This document shows, one piece after another, positions 12,642-51,806 of a DNA stretch of 64,000 nucleotides (the stretch's first letter is position 1; each line of letters begins with the position of its first letter). The notes under the pieces were generated by a model. The model did no database searches, had not been told where the DNA came from, and saw nothing but the letters and a program-made list of their open reading frames with translations. Origin of the DNA: Escherichia coli (GTDB lineage: Bacteria > Pseudomonadota > Gammaproteobacteria > Enterobacterales > Enterobacteriaceae); the NCBI RefSeq assembly GCF_044324785.1, contig NZ_CP172127.1. One strand, written 5' to 3'. A program made the position numbers and the translations under genes.

Positions 12642-12718
12642 GGCTACGTAGCTCAGTTGGTTAGAGCACATCACTCATAATGATGGGGTCACAGGTTCGA
12701 ATCCCGTCGTAGCCACCA
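12642..12718 (+). tRNA. metT: tRNA-Met (elongator, anticodon CAT)
   Basis: 77 nt GGCTACGTAGCTCAGTTGGTTAGAGCACATCACTCATAATGATGG...CGTAGCCACCA; cloverleaf with CAT anticodon and encoded CCA. Confidence 0.95.
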
Positions 12719-12726
12719 TCTTTTTT

Positions 12727-12811
12727 GCGGGAGTGGCGAAATTGGTAGACGCACCAGATTTAGGTTCTGGCGCCGCAAGGTGTGCGAGTTCAAGTCTCGC
12801 CTCCCGCACCA
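12727..12811 (+). tRNA. leuW: tRNA-Leu (anticodon TAG), long variable arm
   Basis: 85 nt GCGGGAGTGGCGAAATTGGTAGACGCACCAGATTTAGGTTCTGG...CTCCCGCACCA. Confidence 0.95.
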
Positions 12812-12834
12812 TTCACCAGAAAGCGTTGTACGGA

Positions 12835-12909
12835 TGGGGTATCGCCAAGCGGTAAGGCACCGGTTTTTGATACCGGCATTCCCTGGTTCGAATCCAGGTA
12901 CCCCAGCCA
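12835..12909 (+). tRNA. glnU: tRNA-Gln (anticodon TTG)
   Basis: 75 nt TGGGGTATCGCCAAGCGGTAAGGCACCGGTTTTTGATACCGG...CCCCAGCCA; paralog name (glnU vs glnW) ambiguous. Confidence 0.95.
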
Positions 12910-12924
12910 TCGAAGAAACAATCT

Positions 12925-13001
12925 GGCTACGTAGCTCAGTTGGTTAGAGCACATCACTCATAATGATGGGGTCACAGGTTCGAATCCCGTCGTAGCCACC
13001 A
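12925..13001 (+). tRNA. metU: tRNA-Met (elongator, anticodon CAT), identical second copy
   Basis: 77 nt identical to the copy at 12642-12718. Confidence 0.95.
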
Positions 13002-13049
13002 AATTCTGAATGTGTCGAATAAGTTCGGCAAATTCACAAACCAATTTGT

Positions 13050-13124
13050 TGGGGTATCGCCAAGCGGTAAGGCACCGGATTCTGATTCCGGCATTCCGAG
13101 GTTCGAATCCTCGTACCCCAGCCA
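13050..13124 (+). tRNA. glnV: tRNA-Gln (anticodon CTG)
   Basis: 75 nt TGGGGTATCGCCAAGCGGTAAGGCACCGGATTCTGATTCCGG...CCCCAGCCA; paralog name (glnV vs glnX) ambiguous. Confidence 0.95.
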
Positions 13125-18672: not shown

Positions 18673-20211
18673 ATGGCTTTTGCCTCATTAATTGAACGCC
18701 AGCGCATTCGCCTGCTGCTGGCGTTATTATTCGGTGCCTGCGGAACGCTGGCCTTCTCTCCTTACGACGTCTGGCCTGCGGCGATTATTTCGCTGATGGG
18801 GCTTCAGGCGCTGACCTTTAACCGCCGTCCACTCCAGTCTGCCGCTATTGGCTTTTGCTGGGGATTTGGCCTCTTTGGCAGCGGTATTAACTGGGTCTAT
18901 GTCAGCATCGCGACTTTTGGTGGAATGCCTGGCCCGGTTAACATCTTCTTGGTGGTGCTGCTGGCGGCGTATTTGTCGCTGTATACCGGACTGTTTGCTG
19001 GCGTGCTGTCGCGTCTGTGGCCGAAAACCACCTGGCTGCGCGTGGCGATTGCCGCCCCTGCTCTCTGGCAAGTGACCGAGTTTCTGCGCGGTTGGGTGCT
19101 GACTGGTTTCCCGTGGTTACAGTTCGGCTATAGCCAGATTGATGGCCCGTTAAAAGGGCTGGCACCGATAATGGGCGTGGAAGCCATTAACTTCCTGCTA
19201 ATGATGGTTAGCGGCCTGCTGGCACTGGCGTTGGTCAAACGCAACTGGCGTCCGATGGTGGTGGCCGTCGTGCTGTTCGCCCTTCCCTTCCCGCTGCGTT
19301 ACATCCAGTGGTTTACCCCGCAACCGGAGAAAACCATTCAGGTTTCGATGGTTCAGGGCGATATTCCGCAATCGCTGAAGTGGGACGAAAGCCAGCTTCT
19401 TAATACGCTGAAAATTTATTACAACGCGACGGCACCGCTGATGGGCAAATCGTCGCTGATTATCTGGCCGGAGTCGGCGATAACCGATCTGGAAATTAAT
19501 CAGCAACCGTTCCTCAAAGCACTGGACGGTGAGTTGCGCGATAAAGGTAGCTCGCTGGTAACCGGGATTGTCGACGCGCGTCTCAATAAGCAGAACCGCT
19601 ACGATACCTACAACACCATCATCACGCTGGGTAAAGGTGCACCGTACAGCTACGAATCAGCCGATCGCTATAACAAAAACCATCTGGTGCCGTTTGGCGA
19701 GTTTGTCCCGCTGGAGTCGATTCTGCGTCCGTTAGCGCCGTTCTTTGATCTGCCGATGTCGTCGTTCAGCCGTGGGCCATATATCCAGCCGCCGCTGTCG
19801 GTAAATGGTATTGAGCTTACTGCGGCTATTTGCTACGAGATCATTCTCGGCGAGCAAGTGCGCGATAACTTCCGCCCGGATACCGACTATCTGCTGACTA
19901 TCTCCAACGATGCGTGGTTTGGTAAGTCTATTGGTCCATGGCAGCACTTCCAGATGGCGCGAATGCGTGCGCTGGAGCTGGCGCGCCCATTGCTGCGTAG
20001 CACCAACAACGGTATTACGGCGGTGATTGGCCCGCAGGGTGAGATTCAGGCAATGATCCCGCAGTTCACCCGCGAAGTGTTGACCACTAACGTGACTCCG
20101 ACCACCGGACTTACACCGTACGCACGTACCGGCAACTGGCCTCTGTGGGTGCTGACGGCACTGTTTGGTTTTGCTGCTGTGCTGATGAGCCTGCGTCAAC
20201 GACGTAAATAA
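18673..20211 (+). CDS. lnt: Apolipoprotein N-acyltransferase
   Basis: 512-aa ORF, N-terminal TM segments plus C-N hydrolase domain (catalytic Cys in ICYEIIL). Confidence 0.95.
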
Positions 20212-20222
20212 TCCCTTCTTAT

Positions 20223-20290
20223 CGTGCCGGAATACATCCCGTATTTCGGCACGCTCACCGGATGCGGCATCAGTGCGTTATCCGGATAAC
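20223..20290. repeat. Hairpin followed by REP-like element downstream of lnt
   Basis: CGTGCCGGAATACATCCCGTATTTCGGCACG stem-loop, then CACCGGATGCGGCATCAGTGCGTTATCCGGATAAC (REP-like). Confidence 0.5.
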
Positions 20291-20607
20291 AAAATTCCCC
20301 TATCCAACTTTGGCACATCTATTGCTTTGTTATACAAGGCAAAGCTTGAACCAGCATCAGTACAACCCGATTGCACCACAGCAATCCACGGGTAGCACCA
20401 AAAGAGTGCATTTTAAGAATTTTGCTTCGGAATGGTGCGGCGCATCTCGCAAAAACAAACAATAAAACATCAATATCTTTACATTTAGCCAAACTAAATG
20501 TTACCTAACAAGCACAACACTGCACAATAAAGTTGCAGATGATAACAACACAAACACTCACAACGGGTATCCATGCGTTCTTAACGCAGAAGATAAAGGA
20601 GTTGGAT

Positions 20608-21516
20608 ATGCAATTACGTAAACCTGCCACAGCAATCCTGGCCCTGGCGCTTTCCGCAGGACTGGCACAGGCAGATGACGCCGCCCCGGCAGCGGGCAGT
20701 ACTCTGGACAAAATCGCCAAAAACGGTGTGATTGTCGTCGGTCACCGTGAATCTTCAGTGCCTTTCTCTTATTACGACAATCAGCAAAAAGTGGTGGGTT
20801 ACTCGCAGGATTACTCCAACGCCATTGTTGAAGCAGTGAAAAAGAAACTCAACAAACCGGACTTGCAGGTAAAACTGATTCCGATTACCTCACAAAACCG
20901 TATTCCGCTGCTGCAAAACGGCACTTTTGATTTTGAATGTGGCTCTACCACCAACAACGTCGAACGCCAAAAACAGGCGGCTTTCTCTGACACTATTTTC
21001 GTGGTCGGTACGCGCCTGCTGACCAAAAAGGGCGGCGATATCAAAGATTTTGCCGACCTGAAAGGCAAAGCCGTAGTCGTCACTTCCGGCACTACCTCTG
21101 AAGTTTTGCTCAACAAATTGAATGAAGAGCAAAAAATGAATATGCGCATCATCAGCGCCAAAGATCACGGTGACTCTTTCCGCACCCTGGAAAGCGGTCG
21201 TGCTGTTGCCTTTATGATGGATGACGCTCTGCTGGCCGGTGAACGTGCGAAAGCGAAGAAACCAGACAACTGGGATATCGTCGGCAAGCCGCAGTCTCAG
21301 GAAGCCTACGGTTGCATGTTGCGTAAAGATGATCCGCAGTTCAAAAAGCTGATGGATGACACCATCGCGCAGGTGCAGACCTCCGGTGAAGCGGAAAAAT
21401 GGTTTGATAAGTGGTTTAAAAATCCCATTCCGCCGAAAAACCTGAACATGAATTTCGAGCTGTCAGACGAAATGAAAGCACTGTTCAAAGAACCGAATGA
21501 TAAGGCACTGAACTAA
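20608..21516 (+). CDS. gltI: Glutamate/aspartate periplasmic binding protein
   Basis: 302 aa from MQLRKPATAILALALSAGLAQA (signal peptide); track ORF extends 25 codons upstream. Confidence 0.93.
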   Translation: MQLRKPATAILALALSAGLAQADDAAPAAGSTLDKIAKNGVIVVGHRESSVPFSYYDNQQKVVGYSQDYSNAIVEAVKKKLNKPDLQVKLIPITSQNRIPLLQNGTFDFECGSTTNNVERQKQAAFSDTIFVVGTRLLTKKGGDIKDFADLKGKAVVVTSGTTSEVLLNKLNEEQKMNMRIISAKDHGDSFRTLESGRAVAFMMDDALLAGERAKAKKPDNWDIVGKPQSQEAYGCMLRKDDPQFKKLMDDTIAQVQTSGEAEKWFDKWFKNPIPPKNLNMNFELSDEMKALFKEPNDKALN

Positions 21517-21674
21517 TTACAAGAACCAGGGGCGGAAATTCCAGCCCTCTCGATTGTTACGTAGCACGGACAGACTATACGCCTGATGGTCGTTCCCCAT
21601 CGGGCCTGAAAACCGCAATACGCTGGGTAACAATCTTCGAGGGTAGCAGTTAACGCTGCTACCCTCTTTTTTCT
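21512..21674 (+). ncRNA. sroC: SroC sRNA region (processed from the gltI 3' end/gltI-gltJ spacer) including intrinsic terminator
   Basis: Conserved spacer ending in GAGGGTAGCAG-TTAAC-GCTGCTACCCTC+TTTTTT hairpin at 21640-21674; location matches the known SroC locus. Confidence 0.6.
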
Positions 21675-21685
21675 GGAGTAGATTT

Positions 21686-22426
21686 ATGTCTATAGACTGG
21701 AACTGGGGTATTTTTTTACAACAAGCCCCGTTCGGCAACACCACCTATCTTGGTTGGATCTGGAGTGGTTTTCAGGTGACGATCGCTTTGTCGATCTGCG
21801 CCTGGATTATCGCTTTCCTCGTCGGTTCATTTTTCGGCATTTTACGTACCGTTCCAAACCGTTTTCTCTCCGGTCTGGGTACGTTGTATGTCGAACTGTT
21901 CCGCAACGTGCCGTTGATTGTGCAATTCTTTACCTGGTATCTGGTGATCCCGGAGTTGCTGCCAGAGAAAATCGGCATGTGGTTTAAGGCCGAACTGGAT
22001 CCCAATATTCAGTTTTTCCTTTCATCCATGCTCTGCCTGGGGCTGTTTACCGCCGCCCGTGTTTGCGAACAGCTACGCGCCGCGATTCAGTCGTTGCCGC
22101 GTGGGCAGAAGAATGCCGCGCTGGCGATGGGTCTGACGCTACCGCAGGCTTACCGCTACGTACTGCTGCCTAATGCTTATCGCGTTATCGTCCCGCCGAT
22201 GACCTCAGAGATGATGAACCTGGTGAAAAACTCCGCCATCGCCTCGACCATCGGTCTGGTAGATATGGCAGCGCAGGCCGGTAAATTGCTTGATTACTCA
22301 GCCCACGCCTGGGAGTCGTTTACCGCCATTACGCTTGCGTATGTGTTGATTAACGCTTTTATCATGCTGGTGATGACGCTGGTTGAACGTAAAGTTCGCC
22401 TGCCTGGCAACATGGGGGGCAAATAA
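21686..22426 (+). CDS. gltJ: Glutamate/aspartate ABC transporter permease
   Basis: 246-aa polytopic ORF; 1-nt stop/start overlap with gltK. Confidence 0.94.
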
Positions 22427-23100
22427 TGTACGAGTTTGACTGGAGTTCCATTGTCCCTTCCCTGCCATATCTGCTGGATGGGCTGGTGATCACCCTGAAA
22501 ATCACCGTCACGGCAGTCGTGATTGGTATTTTGTGGGGCACCATGCTGGCGGTGATGCGCTTGTCCAGCTTTGCGCCTGTTGCGTGGTTTGCCAAAGCCT
22601 ACGTTAACGTATTCCGCTCGATTCCTTTAGTCATGGTTTTGCTGTGGTTTTACCTGATTGTGCCGGGTTTTCTGCAAAACGTGCTGGGATTATCGCCAAA
22701 AAATGATATCCGTTTAATTTCGGCGATGGTGGCGTTTTCGATGTTTGAAGCGGCCTACTATTCAGAGATTATCCGCGCCGGTATTCAAAGTATTTCCCGT
22801 GGTCAGTCGAGCGCCGCGCTGGCGTTGGGGATGACTCACTGGCAGTCGATGAAACTGATTATTCTGCCGCAGGCTTTCCGCGCGATGGTGCCGCTGCTGC
22901 TCACTCAGGGCATCGTACTGTTTCAGGATACCTCACTGGTGTATGTGTTATCTCTGGCCGATTTCTTCCGTACCGCCTCAACCATTGGTGAGCGTGATGG
23001 TACGCAGGTTGAGATGATCCTGTTTGCCGGATTTGTTTATTTCGTTATTAGCCTTAGCGCGTCGTTGTTGGTCAGCTACTTGAAAAGAAGGACAGCATAA
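22426..23100 (+). CDS. gltK: Glutamate/aspartate ABC transporter permease
   Basis: 224-aa polytopic ORF; 1-nt stop/start overlap with gltL. Confidence 0.94.
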
Positions 23101-23825
23101 TGATTACCCTGAAAAATGTTTCAAAATGGTATGGTCACTTTCAGGTGCTGACCGACTGCTCAACCGAAGTGAAAAAAGGCGAAGTGGTGGTGGTTTGCGG
23201 CCCGTCTGGTTCCGGCAAATCAACGCTGATTAAAACCGTCAACGGCCTCGAACCGGTGCAGCAAGGTGAAATTACCGTCGATGGCATCGTGGTTAACGAT
23301 AAGAAAACCGATCTGGCAAAGCTGCGTTCCCGCGTCGGGATGGTGTTCCAGCATTTCGAGTTGTTCCCCCATTTGTCGATTATTGAAAACCTGACCCTGG
23401 CGCAGGTGAAAGTGCTTAAACGCGATAAAGCACCCGCTCGTGAAAAAGCATTGAAATTGCTGGAGCGCGTCGGGCTTTCCGCACATGCCAATAAATTTCC
23501 GGCGCAGCTTTCCGGCGGTCAGCAGCAGCGTGTGGCGATCGCTCGCGCATTGTGTATGGATCCTATTGCCATGCTGTTCGACGAACCGACATCGGCGCTG
23601 GATCCGGAGATGATCAACGAAGTGCTGGACGTGATGGTGGAACTGGCGAACGAAGGAATGACCATGATGGTGGTGACCCACGAAATGGGCTTTGCCCGTA
23701 AAGTGGCGAATCGGGTGATCTTTATGGATGAGGGTAAAATTGTCGAAGACTCGCCGAAAGATGCGTTCTTCGATGATCCGAAATCGGACCGCGCAAAAGA
23801 CTTCCTCGCGAAAATTCTGCATTAA
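23100..23825 (+). CDS. gltL: Glutamate/aspartate ABC transporter ATP-binding protein
   Basis: 241-aa ORF; Walker [13 protein letters not shown] signature LSGGQQQR, Walker B. Confidence 0.96.
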
Positions 23826-23942
23826 TCACTCTGGCGCGCATACCCAAGTGCGCGCCATCTCACGCTTTATCGTTTCGCTCCTCGTATCTGTTACATCCTG
23901 GCGTTACCCTTGTCGCAAAGAAGCACACAACAAGGAGCAACA

Positions 23943-24878
23943 ATGGCACTGCCAATTCTGTTAGATTGCGACCCAGGTCATGATGACGCTATCGCAATAG
24001 TTCTCGCCCTCGCCTCACCAGAGCTTGATGTCAAAGCAATTACGTCTTCCGCCGGAAACCAGACACCAGAAAAAACCTTACGCAATGTTCTGCGTATGCT
24101 GACCTTGCTTAATCGCACCGATATTCCGGTGGCAGGCGGCGCGGTAAAACCGTTAATGCGTGAGTTGATTATCGCGGACAATGTGCACGGCGAAAGCGGT
24201 CTCGACGGCCCGGCATTACCGGAACCGACGTTTGCACCGCAAAAGTGTACGGCGGTGGAGCTGATGGCGAAAACGCTACGTGAAAGTGCGGAACCTGTCA
24301 CGATTGTGTCTACCGGACCGCAAACTAACGTTGCCTTGCTGCTCAATAGCCATCCGGAACTGCATAGCAAAATTGCTCGTATCGTGATTATGGGTGGCGC
24401 AATGGGGCTTGGTAACTGGACGCCTGCGGCTGAATTTAATATTTACGTTGACCCGGAAGCGGCAGAAATTGTTTTCCAGTCAGGGATCCCGGTGGTGATG
24501 GCCGGTCTGGATGTTACTCACAAAGCACAAATTCACGTTGAGGACACCGAGCGTTTCCGCGCCATTGGCAACCCTGTTTCAACCATTGTTGCCGAACTGC
24601 TGGATTTCTTCCTCGAATATCATAAAGACGAAAAATGGGGCTTTGTCGGCGCACCGCTGCATGACCCATGCACCATCGCCTGGCTGTTAAAACCGGAGTT
24701 GTTTACCACTGTTGAGCGCTGGGTTGGCGTGGAAACACAAGGGAAATATACCCAGGGTATGACGGTTGTTGATTATTATTATCTGACCGGCAATAAACCG
24801 AATGCTACTGTAATGGTCGATGTTGATCGTCAGGGCTTTGTTGATTTACTGGCTGATCGTCTGAAATTTTACGCTTAA
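23943..24878 (+). CDS. rihA: Pyrimidine-specific ribonucleoside hydrolase RihA
   Basis: 311 aa from [16 protein letters not shown] (nucleoside hydrolase DxDxxxDD motif); track ORF begins 11 codons upstream. Confidence 0.93.
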
Positions 24879-50813: not shown

Positions 50814-50844
50814 CAAAAAAACCCGCTGATTAAGCGGGTTTTGA
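50814..50844. terminator. Bidirectional terminator between crcB and cspE
   Basis: AAAAAAACCCGCT-GATTA-AGCGGGTTTTG. Confidence 0.8.
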
Positions 50845-50861
50845 ATTCTTGCTGACGTATC

Positions 50862-51071
50862 TTACAGAGCGATTACGTTTGCAGCAGAAGGGCCTTTGGC
50901 ACCGTTAGTGATTTCGAACTCTACGCGCTGACCTTCAGCAAGAGTTTTAAAACCATTAGTCTGGATTGCAGAGAAGTGTACGAACACGTCTTTGCTGCCG
51001 TCTTCCGGAGTAATGAAACCGAATCCTTTGGACTCATTAAACCACTTAACGTTACCTTTAATCTTAGACAT
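50862..51071 (-). CDS. cspE: Cold-shock-like protein CspE
   Basis: 69 aa [20 protein letters not shown]... (RNP1 motif); track ORF extends upstream to an alternative start. Confidence 0.95.
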
Positions 51072-51245
51072 CAAAATTACCTTTACATGAAAAATAGACA
51101 CAAATGCTGTGTCGGTTACCAGTACACCAATTGTGGTACGCTTTGTCCAGTGCAACTTTACTAAAAAGTGATAAAAGTCGCGTTATTTTTGATGTTACTT
51201 ATTTTAGTTATTGATTTTAAAGAAGTTACTAAAACTTCATTTGTC

Positions 51246-51806
51246 TCAAAACTGAAAGCGCATCCAGGCAAAGTACACATTGCCATTGTTGTAGGTACCC
51301 GGAATGTAGGTCATCTGAAAAGTCACTGGACCATAACCCACAGAGGCCAATGGCAGTAGAACCGGGAGAGGGATGTAATTCCAGTTATCGCGTGCCGTTA
51401 CGCCAGCGGTGAATCCCAGACCTAAATGAAAATTTTCATCCGCCAGCGGTCGCCAGGTACTTTCCCATCCGTATCCGGCAATCGGTTCCCATTTGTTCCA
51501 CGAGTCCTTAAATGCCATGGCATACAGGCCATGCCAGTTTCCTTTTTCATCCCAACGCGACAGGCCAAAACCGCCACCCCACGGTCGCTCGTTATAGCGA
51601 TCGGTTTTTTCTTTGTCGTAAGCGAAACGTGCATGCCAGGTGATGGCAGGAATATATAAATCATAATGTTCAGGCTGTTGCCAGGTTTGTGCAATATTTT
51701 CTCTAAACGTTGTCATCCACTCATCTGCGTTAGCAAAAACTTTACCAACGCTGATTAACTGAATAAAAACAAAGGAAAAGATAGCGACATATTTACTCAC
51801 GTTCAT
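51246..51806 (-). CDS. pagP: Lipid A palmitoyltransferase PagP (CrcA)
   Basis: 186 aa from [25 protein letters not shown] (signal peptide); outer-membrane beta-barrel ending ...RFQF. Confidence 0.93.

Follow-up and report, generated by a model that had tools for sequence, protein, structure and literature searches.

The spacer between gltI and gltJ in Escherichia coli ends in a terminator-like hairpin, with gltJ and two further genes of the same operon lying beyond it, and the question raised by this locus is whether the spacer only apportions expression within the operon or also gives rise to a regulatory RNA. The locus was analyzed in a 64,000-nt stretch of E. coli DNA (contig NZ_CP172127.1, hereafter the window). 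An earlier note, made from the letters of the window, had proposed that the spacer corresponds to sroC, the source of a small RNA processed from the gltIJKL mRNA that acts as a sponge for GcvB, a small RNA which itself represses about 1% of E. coli genes. SroC is a textbook example of an mRNA by-product controlling a global regulator, and the analysis described here leaves that picture unchanged.

The gltI–gltJ spacer is the sroC locus

The genes and the small RNA are arranged as follows.

20608–21516, + strand: gltI, encoding the periplasmic glutamate/aspartate-binding protein of 302 amino acids and the parental mRNA of SroC (sequence, list of open reading frames, and RefSeq annotation of K-12 and the collinear strain N3)
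21512–21674, + strand: SroC small RNA, 163 nt (Rfam RF00369 and identity to K-12)
21675–21678, + strand: gltJ Shine-Dalgarno sequence GGAG, 2 nt past the U tract and 7 nt ahead of the ATG (sequence)
21686–22426, 22426–23100 and 23100–23825, + strand: gltJ, gltK and gltL, encoding permease and ATPase subunits (open reading frames, annotation)

Direct reading of positions 20400–22600 placed the gltI stop codon TAA at 21514–21516 and the gltJ ATG at 21686. The spacer thus measures 169 nt, and 13 nt, including the Shine-Dalgarno GGAG, separate its terminal T run from the gltJ ATG; the figures of 170 nt and about 12 nt proposed earlier were therefore right to within one or two bases. The gene order corC-lnt-gltIJKL-rihA-hscC is that of E. 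coli, and lnt-gltI-[sroC]-gltJKL-rihA is found as in K-12 and N3. Together with the near-universal presence of sroC in E. coli, this gene order identifies the window as E. coli chromosome, in the opposite orientation to K-12 numbering. Outside SroC itself, the window strain differs from MG1655 in lacking the IS5 element that lies upstream of gltI in the latter.

The entire window was scanned against Rfam. Family RF00369 (sroC) was the sole match in this region, with 174.8 bits (gathering score, 45 bits) and an E-value of 7.4e-37, covering model positions 1–163 of 163 without truncation and falling at exactly 21512–21674, as the earlier note had it. The curated record of K-12 MG1655 lists the ncRNA sroC (b4763) at 686681–686843 on the minus strand, between gltI and gltJ, and alignment to this gene showed 163 identical positions out of 163. 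Across window positions 21480–21700 a single difference from K-12 was observed in 221 columns, located in gltI upstream of SroC. The position also agrees with the K-12 annotation: the RNA lies on the + strand, in the gltI–gltJ spacer, and its 5′ end is just inside the gltI coding sequence, the first five nucleotides (ACUAA) overlapping the end of the gltI reading frame, namely its final sense codon and its stop. Among complete E. coli genomes, 5421 of 5426 carry the sroC segment, with an identity of 99% or more in 5249 of those 5421, and the stretch from the terminator to the gltJ start is identical in approximately 5397. The segment occurs at a median of one place per genome and a maximum of two.

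The locus is therefore a known small RNA identical to its reference, and its K-12 counterpart (b4763) is its equal in every feature compared: sequence, position, fold, terminator and both GcvB sites. Identity, fold, terminator, complementarity and conservation were all established computationally. We assign a probability of about 0.96 to the reading that this segment is the sroC locus and that SroC is made from the gltI mRNA and acts on GcvB as in the published model; that reading, which the earlier note had anticipated, is supported, met with no contradicting observation, and has already been published, so that it adds nothing to the published picture.

The fold of SroC is supported by compensatory changes

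The 163-nt RNA folds with −66.3 kcal/mol, compared with −40.5 ± 4.0 kcal/mol for 200 shuffled sequences (z = −6.5). The fold consists of two stem-loops followed by the terminator hairpin.

21529–21548, + strand: SroC stem-loop 1 (SL1; minimum-free-energy and centroid fold)
21552–21635, + strand: SroC stem-loop 2 (SL2), a long interrupted helix bearing both GcvB contact sites (fold)

Homologues were collected by scanning one genome per species for AGCACGGACNNACTATA, which returned 97 loci. About 58 of these were gltI–gltJ spacers of Enterobacteriaceae, from about 15 genera overall that included Escherichia, Salmonella, Citrobacter, Enterobacter, Kluyvera, Klebsiella, Raoultella, Kosakonia, Phytobacter, Pluralibacter, Lelliottia, Siccibacter and others. 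The remaining loci, approximately 40, were chance matches in unrelated phyla; none of them carried downstream the motif BS1 described below, and they were discarded. An alignment of 55 spacers plus the window (56 sequences, hereafter A2) was used to count how well the fold of the window is kept. In A2, 88.5% of the cells were paired, versus 37–54% when partner columns were slid by 1–3, and the covariation score was 0.203 versus 0.047–0.069 in the slid controls; the tested structure came from one member of the alignment, and these figures are biased in its favour relative to the slid versions. Independent of that choice are the compensatory changes: 16 pairs were changed on both sides, and these were concentrated in SL2. 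The apical helix of SL2 provided the clearest case, with compensatory changes in six of nine pairs and 97.4% of the cells paired, and the basal helix showed such changes in 6 of its 13 pairs. In SL1, 87.5% of the cells were paired and two of the eight pairs were changed on both sides.

A Rho-independent terminator defines the 3′ end

The 3′ part of the spacer contains the inverted repeat GAGGGTAGCAGT / GCTGCTACCCTC, which spans 21639–21666 and gives rise to the following elements.

21639–21666, + strand: intrinsic terminator hairpin of 12 pairs (7 G-C) with a 4-nt loop, −21.3 kcal/mol (terminator scan, folds)
21667–21672, + strand: U6 tract, TTTTTT in the DNA (sequence; K-12 Term-seq 3′ end at the last U)

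The hairpin arms, GAGGGTAGCAG(T) and (G)CTGCTACCCTC, occupy 21639–21650 and 21655–21666, respectively, and the GC-rich hairpin followed by six T residues that had been noticed earlier is thus present as described. A terminator scan of positions 20200–24200 found 10 sites, compared with 5.2 ± 2.9 in shuffled sequences. The site at 21639–21666 was by far the strongest, the next best having seven pairs, and its pairs showed ensemble probabilities of 0.89–1.0.

A transcript 3′ end at the hairpin, which the earlier note had predicted, is found in published Term-seq data from MG1655 (PMC7815308, Adams et al. 2021). The end at 686683(−), equivalent to window position 21672, is annotated inside sroC, falls on the last U of the tract, 14 nt ahead of the gltJ start, and was covered by 42,928 reads on average in LB at OD 0.4 (PMC7815308). 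A second end, 686689(−), equivalent to 21666 at the base of the stem and also annotated inside sroC, appears in the tab of another growth condition with 84,415 average reads (PMC7815308). The former end has a Rho score of 1.10 ('No') and an intrinsic-terminator score of 3.71 versus a threshold of 3.0 (PMC7815308). Carried over to the window by identical sequence, these K-12 data indicate that the 3′ end is Rho-independent.

The terminator was called strong in the earlier note. This holds thermodynamically (−21.3 kcal/mol), but the authors who studied the operon describe it as a 'leaky Rho-independent' terminator giving a monocistronic gltI mRNA beside the full operon mRNA (PMC4474525). A single gltIJKL promoter has been described (PMC4474525), and no sigma-70-like promoter was matched on the + strand anywhere in 20200–24200, in what is a weak test. 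With one operon promoter and no promoter-like site for gltJKL, termination would have to be incomplete, and expression of gltJKL would come only from transcripts that pass 21639–21672. The related claim that gltJKL is attenuated relative to gltI stands qualitatively and amounts to the published leaky-terminator model. In a K-12 DirectRNA-seq table (LB, OD 0.4), however, coverage in 800-nt windows drops by no more than from 102 upstream to 82 downstream, values that reflect steady-state RNA and not termination efficiency. Attenuation of gltJKL under these conditions may thus be mild.

The terminator differs between genera and is nearly invariant in its stem

The hairpin of Salmonella and most other genera is GAGGGUAGC-GCU-GCUACCCUU, with 9 pairs, a 3-nt loop and −13.1 kcal/mol, followed by U8. 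By contrast, 7 nt (CAGTTAA) are inserted at the top of the hairpin in Escherichia; the inserted CAG pairs with a pre-existing CUG, producing the hairpin of 12 pairs and 4-nt loop described above. A U-to-C change leaves Escherichia with a U tract of 6 instead of 8. Kluyvera has different insertions, of about 6–9 nt, at the same point and with the same lengthening effect. By parsimony, the lengthenings in Escherichia and Kluyvera would represent two independent events. Most mechanistic work on SroC was done with the Salmonella RNA, and the terminator of Escherichia is structurally unlike the Salmonella one on which the 'leaky' model is based, which means that read-through fractions should not be transferred between the two unless measured.

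In 53 of 55 distinct homologues the sequence of the terminator stem, like that of the AAUCUUC preceding it, is almost unchanged, whereas the other SroC stems covary. That the terminator is tuned or regulated instead of being a passive leaky stop is unlikely, but it would have consequences: were it tuned, the split between gltI/SroC and gltJKL could differ between genera, and were its sequence read by a factor, termination and, via the release of SroC, GcvB levels would come under the control of that factor.

A specific form of this idea takes the spacer for a regulated attenuator, either resembling a riboswitch or serving as the site of a trans-acting factor, at which termination responds to glutamate/aspartate or to a protein and thereby controls the release of SroC. 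Miyakoshi et al. raised it, citing conserved nucleotides outside the GcvB contacts (PMC4474525), and the near-invariance of the terminator stem and AAUCUUC in the homologues points in the same direction. However, no Rfam riboswitch or leader family was matched in the spacer, and a search for a competing antiterminator fold found none, the best structure with the 3′ arm forced open being 20 kcal/mol worse. In co-transcriptional prefixes of the RNA, the alternative pairing of the 5′ arm extended SL2 by a few pairs, amounting to only about −2.5 kcal/mol. The invariance is equally explicable by constraints that overlap here, namely those of termination, of a 3′ end bound by Hfq and of the gltJ start next to it, which would be its simplest account. 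We consider a regulated attenuator improbable, a little more so than tuning in the wider sense. Pairing with MgrR as the cause of the invariance was also considered: the best local SroC–MgrR duplex (−15.9 kcal/mol) was no better than those of shuffled sequences (−17.8 ± 2.2 kcal/mol), and the proposal is unsupported by sequence, which leaves the reported SroC–MgrR link neither confirmed nor refuted.

SL2 presents two exact matches to GcvB

Complementarity was computed against K-12 GcvB, gcvB itself being located outside the window. Three elements were relevant.

21568–21575 (SroC 57–64), + strand: BS2, GGACAGAC, an 8-nt Watson-Crick match to GcvB 156–163 (GUCUGUCC, R3/SL4 region)
21590–21596 (SroC 79–85), + strand: BS1, UCGUUCC, a 7-nt Watson-Crick match to GcvB 13–19 (GGAACGA, SL1)
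20542–20566 (boundaries approximate), + strand: C/A-rich stretch of the gltI 5′ UTR with complementarity to R1, the region of GcvB rich in G and U

BS1 and BS2 are 14 nt apart in SroC, and their partner sites are about 137 nt apart in GcvB. This corresponds to the published sites, two regions of 7 or 8 nt separated by 14 nt, for which probing showed GcvB residues G14, G18 and G156 to be protected by SroC (PMC4474525); the sites of SroC on GcvB are likewise given in PMC10250213. The published R3 mutations G156C, G160C and C162G fall within the BS2–GcvB duplex. Watson-Crick stretches of at least 7 nt between SroC and GcvB numbered four, compared with a mean of 1.4 in shuffled sequences, 6.7% of which reached four. 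With a count modestly above that of the shuffles, the pairing claim rests on the exact match to published, mutationally tested sites and not on statistics. Whole-molecule RNAduplex predictions of SroC or the gltI 5′ UTR with GcvB produced one long, loop-ridden duplex indistinguishable from those of shuffles; being uninformative, they were set aside in favour of exact complementary stretches. In the gltI 5′ UTR, window positions 20542–20553 form a 12-nt pairing (Watson-Crick and G-U) with GcvB 73–84, and the complementarity to R1 extends beyond it. This C/A-rich site has been reported to be both a GcvB target and a translation enhancer (PMC4474525).

BS1 coincides exactly with the 7-nt loop at the apex of SL2, and each of its positions had an unpaired probability of at least 0.98. 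Its sequence is the same in 54 of the 56 homologues, the two from Siccibacter differing by one change, whereas the stem varies. The invariance of BS1 is independent of the search pattern; that of BS2 in A2 was imposed by the pattern and carries no weight.

These observations bear on the possibility that the spacer is only an intra-operon attenuator or 3′-end stabiliser that sets the ratio of GltI to GltJKL, the 163-nt RNA being an inert decay intermediate. Conservation of the terminator and of a fixed spacing to the gltJ ribosome-binding site is in keeping with this, the spacing of GGAG to the terminator being kept in nearly all 56 homologues, and ABC transporters generally require their binding protein in excess (PMC4474525). 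By contrast, a loop whose sequence is invariant on a stem that changes with compensation is what would be expected of a site pairing in trans and not of a stabiliser, and both sites match GcvB exactly. Moreover, deletion of sroC mimics deletion of gltI in its effect on GcvB and OppA, while deletion of gltJKL is without effect (PMC4474525). In E. coli, RIL-seq recovered SroC–GcvB chimeras, which account for about 70% of the GcvB chimeras in stationary phase (PMC5145812), and SroC shortens the half-life of GcvB to 3.8 min, compared with more than 16 min otherwise (PMC10250213). An inert RNA is contradicted by the published data on sroC deletion and compensatory mutations, and we regard it as very improbable; the attenuator role is real and belongs to the main explanation instead of being an alternative to it.

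Proposed pathway from gltI mRNA to GcvB decay

For the reading preferred here, a GcvB-directed SroC cut from the gltI mRNA, the processing, Hfq dependence, GcvB decay and physiology are carried over from the literature through sequence identity, and would combine as follows. Transcription would begin upstream of gltI and proceed through it. At the hairpin 21639–21666 and the U6 tract, part of the polymerases would stop without Rho, generating a monocistronic gltI mRNA ending at about 21672, and the others would read through into gltJKL, an arrangement by which, in the published model, a single promoter supplies the binding protein in excess over the membrane components. Directed by Hfq and by the 5′ monophosphate on upstream decay intermediates, RNase E would then cut at 21512, 2 nt before the gltI stop codon, freeing the very stable, tightly folded 163-nt SroC with a 5′ monophosphate. 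Such processing, with a 5′ end inside the gltI coding sequence, was shown in Salmonella in vivo and in vitro (PMC4474525), and the 5′ end given here is the annotated K-12 end by identity. On Hfq, SroC would bind GcvB via the loop of SL2 (BS1) and an internal bulge (BS2), exposing GcvB to RNase E. Loss of GcvB would de-repress its large regulon of amino-acid transport and metabolism, including gltI through the C/A-rich site of its 5′ UTR, and would thus close a positive loop; repression of gltI by GcvB through that site, and hence feedback on the parental mRNA, has been reported (PMC4474525).

Instead of being released by processing, SroC might be transcribed independently, from a promoter of its own within the 3′ end of gltI, as is the case for some 3′-UTR small RNAs such as DapZ and MicL (PMC4474525). 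The scan of 20200–24200 for sigma-70-like sites on the + strand, weak as a test, gave no such promoter. Published findings, namely a 5′ monophosphate, the lack of a start site at the 5′ end, a requirement for RNase E in vivo and accurate processing in vitro (PMC4474525), make this origin hardly credible. Equally implausible is that the region codes for protein: a 75-codon minus-strand open reading frame (21517–21744) and a 7-codon one in SL2 (AUG at 21586, stop at 21607–21609) exist mechanically, but homologous spacers are set apart by indels of lengths not divisible by three (such as the 7-nt hairpin insertion and 6–7-nt deletions in SL2), and substitutions track base-pairing and not codon structure. 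In the mini-ORF, moreover, GUG, GGG or AGG takes the place of the AUG, and Enterobacter and Kosakonia lack the stop codon.

Comparison with related systems

A REP/BIME repeat was ruled out by the single-copy nature of the element in E. coli genomes. Intercistronic REP/BIME stem-loops, as in malE-malF and hisJ-hisQ, are multi-copy repeats that shield the upstream mRNA from 3′ exonucleases and raise the expression of binding proteins over that of the downstream membrane components. The gltI–gltJ element would likewise bias expression, but it occurs in single copy and is a genuine intrinsic terminator, at which a Rho-independent 3′ end has been mapped. The same contrast was drawn in PMC4474525.

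SroC resembles CpxQ, SdhX, MalH, OppZ and NarS. These Hfq-dependent small RNAs are cut by RNase E from the 3′ part of an mRNA whose terminator they share, begin with a 5′ monophosphate, and in most cases act in the same pathway as the operon that gives rise to them (PMC9438474). Unlike them, SroC originates at an intra-operon terminator that follows the first gene, and not at the operon end, and its main target is another small RNA, which is destabilised, and not an mRNA. In this respect SroC is akin to the chbBC spacer, which acts on ChiX, and to 3′ETS-leuZ, which acts on RyhB and RybB: in all three cases a longer transcript yields a by-product by which a small RNA dependent on Hfq is titrated or destroyed, and all three link mRNAs of one regulon. 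The means differ, however, since two short, separated pairings of SroC trigger cleavage of GcvB by RNase E, whereas pairing with ChiX opens its terminator to PNPase (PMC4474525).

A practical point concerns annotation. In automatic RefSeq (PGAP) records the spacer is left unannotated, and sroC is therefore absent from nearly all E. coli annotations despite its presence in virtually every complete genome of the species. The locus also serves as a positive control, a curated small RNA having been recognised from raw sequence at its exact coordinates.

Conservation and variation of the SroC terminator

The stem of the SroC terminator, together with the motif AAUCUUC on its 5' side (window 21632-21674), was found to be sequence-invariant in 53 of the 55 distinct homologues of A2, an alignment of 56 Enterobacteriaceae gltI-gltJ spacers that includes that of the window. 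In contrast, the stems of SL2 covary freely across the same alignment. The invariance of the terminator stem and of AAUCUUC was accounted for neither by the GcvB sites nor by complementarity to MgrR, an sRNA with a reported link to SroC (crude test).

The length of the hairpin differs between genera. Comparison within A2 showed that the Escherichia terminator (window 21639-21666) is longer through an insertion of 7 nt, and that Kluyvera and relatives (L011, L030, L033, L060, L081, L088 and L092) carry insertions of ca. 6-9 nt, of other sequence, at the same point. The lengthened terminators of Escherichia and Kluyvera comprise 11-13 pairs, with free energies of -20 to -23 kcal/mol, versus 9 pairs and -13.1 kcal/mol elsewhere; in E. 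albertii the extension contains a mismatch, giving -14.6 kcal/mol.

The K-12 Term-seq map includes a weak 3' end of 965 reads on the antisense strand, at 686719(+), which corresponds to window position ~21636 on the minus strand and lies just beyond the terminator hairpin in that orientation; this is an indication that the symmetric hairpin also halts or stalls rare antisense transcripts arriving from gltJ.

Divergent homologues and distribution of SroC

In the two Siccibacter loci of A2, L016:3522-3739(-) and L051:11866-12083(+), an insertion of ca. 70-80 nt splits the 3' half of SL2 and shifts the AAUCUUCGAGGG/terminator block downstream, and BS1, the GcvB contact site in the apical loop of SL2, carries a U-to-C change. 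Judged from sequence, the Siccibacter SroC may be a variant or a non-functional form, and it has been likened here to the Yersinia case in the literature (PMC4474525). Another group of loci, L028 (Citrobacter braakii), L090 and L097 (Phytobacter) and L042 (Intestinirhabdus), shows an unusual sequence 5' of SL1, unrelated to the common ...AACTAATTAAAA, indicating that the context of the gltI stop codon and the 5' processing site of SroC are not conserved there.

Of 5426 complete E. coli genomes, 5421 contain the RNA and the other 5 lack the segment; a few genomes carry it at two places, and two places are plasmid-borne. In the PGAP-annotated E. coli RefSeq records matching the segment (H1-H39), gltI and gltJ alone are listed under the match, and among the records compared an sroC annotation was found in the curated K-12 record only.

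Genomic surroundings

The lnt-gltI spacer upstream of the operon (window 20212-20607) spans 396 bp and contains no insertion sequence. In K-12 MG1655, IS5D (insH3) occupies the equivalent site, immediately 5' of the gltI promoter region; thus the window is not MG1655, and the promoter context of gltI and SroC is unlike that of MG1655.

An Rfam 'cspA thermoregulator' match on the minus strand (window 50814-51256; 123.6 bits versus a gathering score of 78) falls on the paralogue cspE rather than on cspA. Since the coding portion of the model is conserved and supplies a large share of this score, the match need not mean a thermosensing 5' UTR.

A tRNA array was also present:

12642-13124, tRNA array of five genes: Met, Leu, Gln(UUG), Met, Gln(CUG)

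N3, an otherwise collinear strain, has seven tRNA genes here versus five in the window, and the K-12 array is likewise of seven (metT-leuW-glnU-glnW-metU-glnV-glnX). Each of the Gln genes that is duplicated in the seven-gene arrays occurs once in the window array, a loss of one copy that looks like the product of recombination between the tandem copies.
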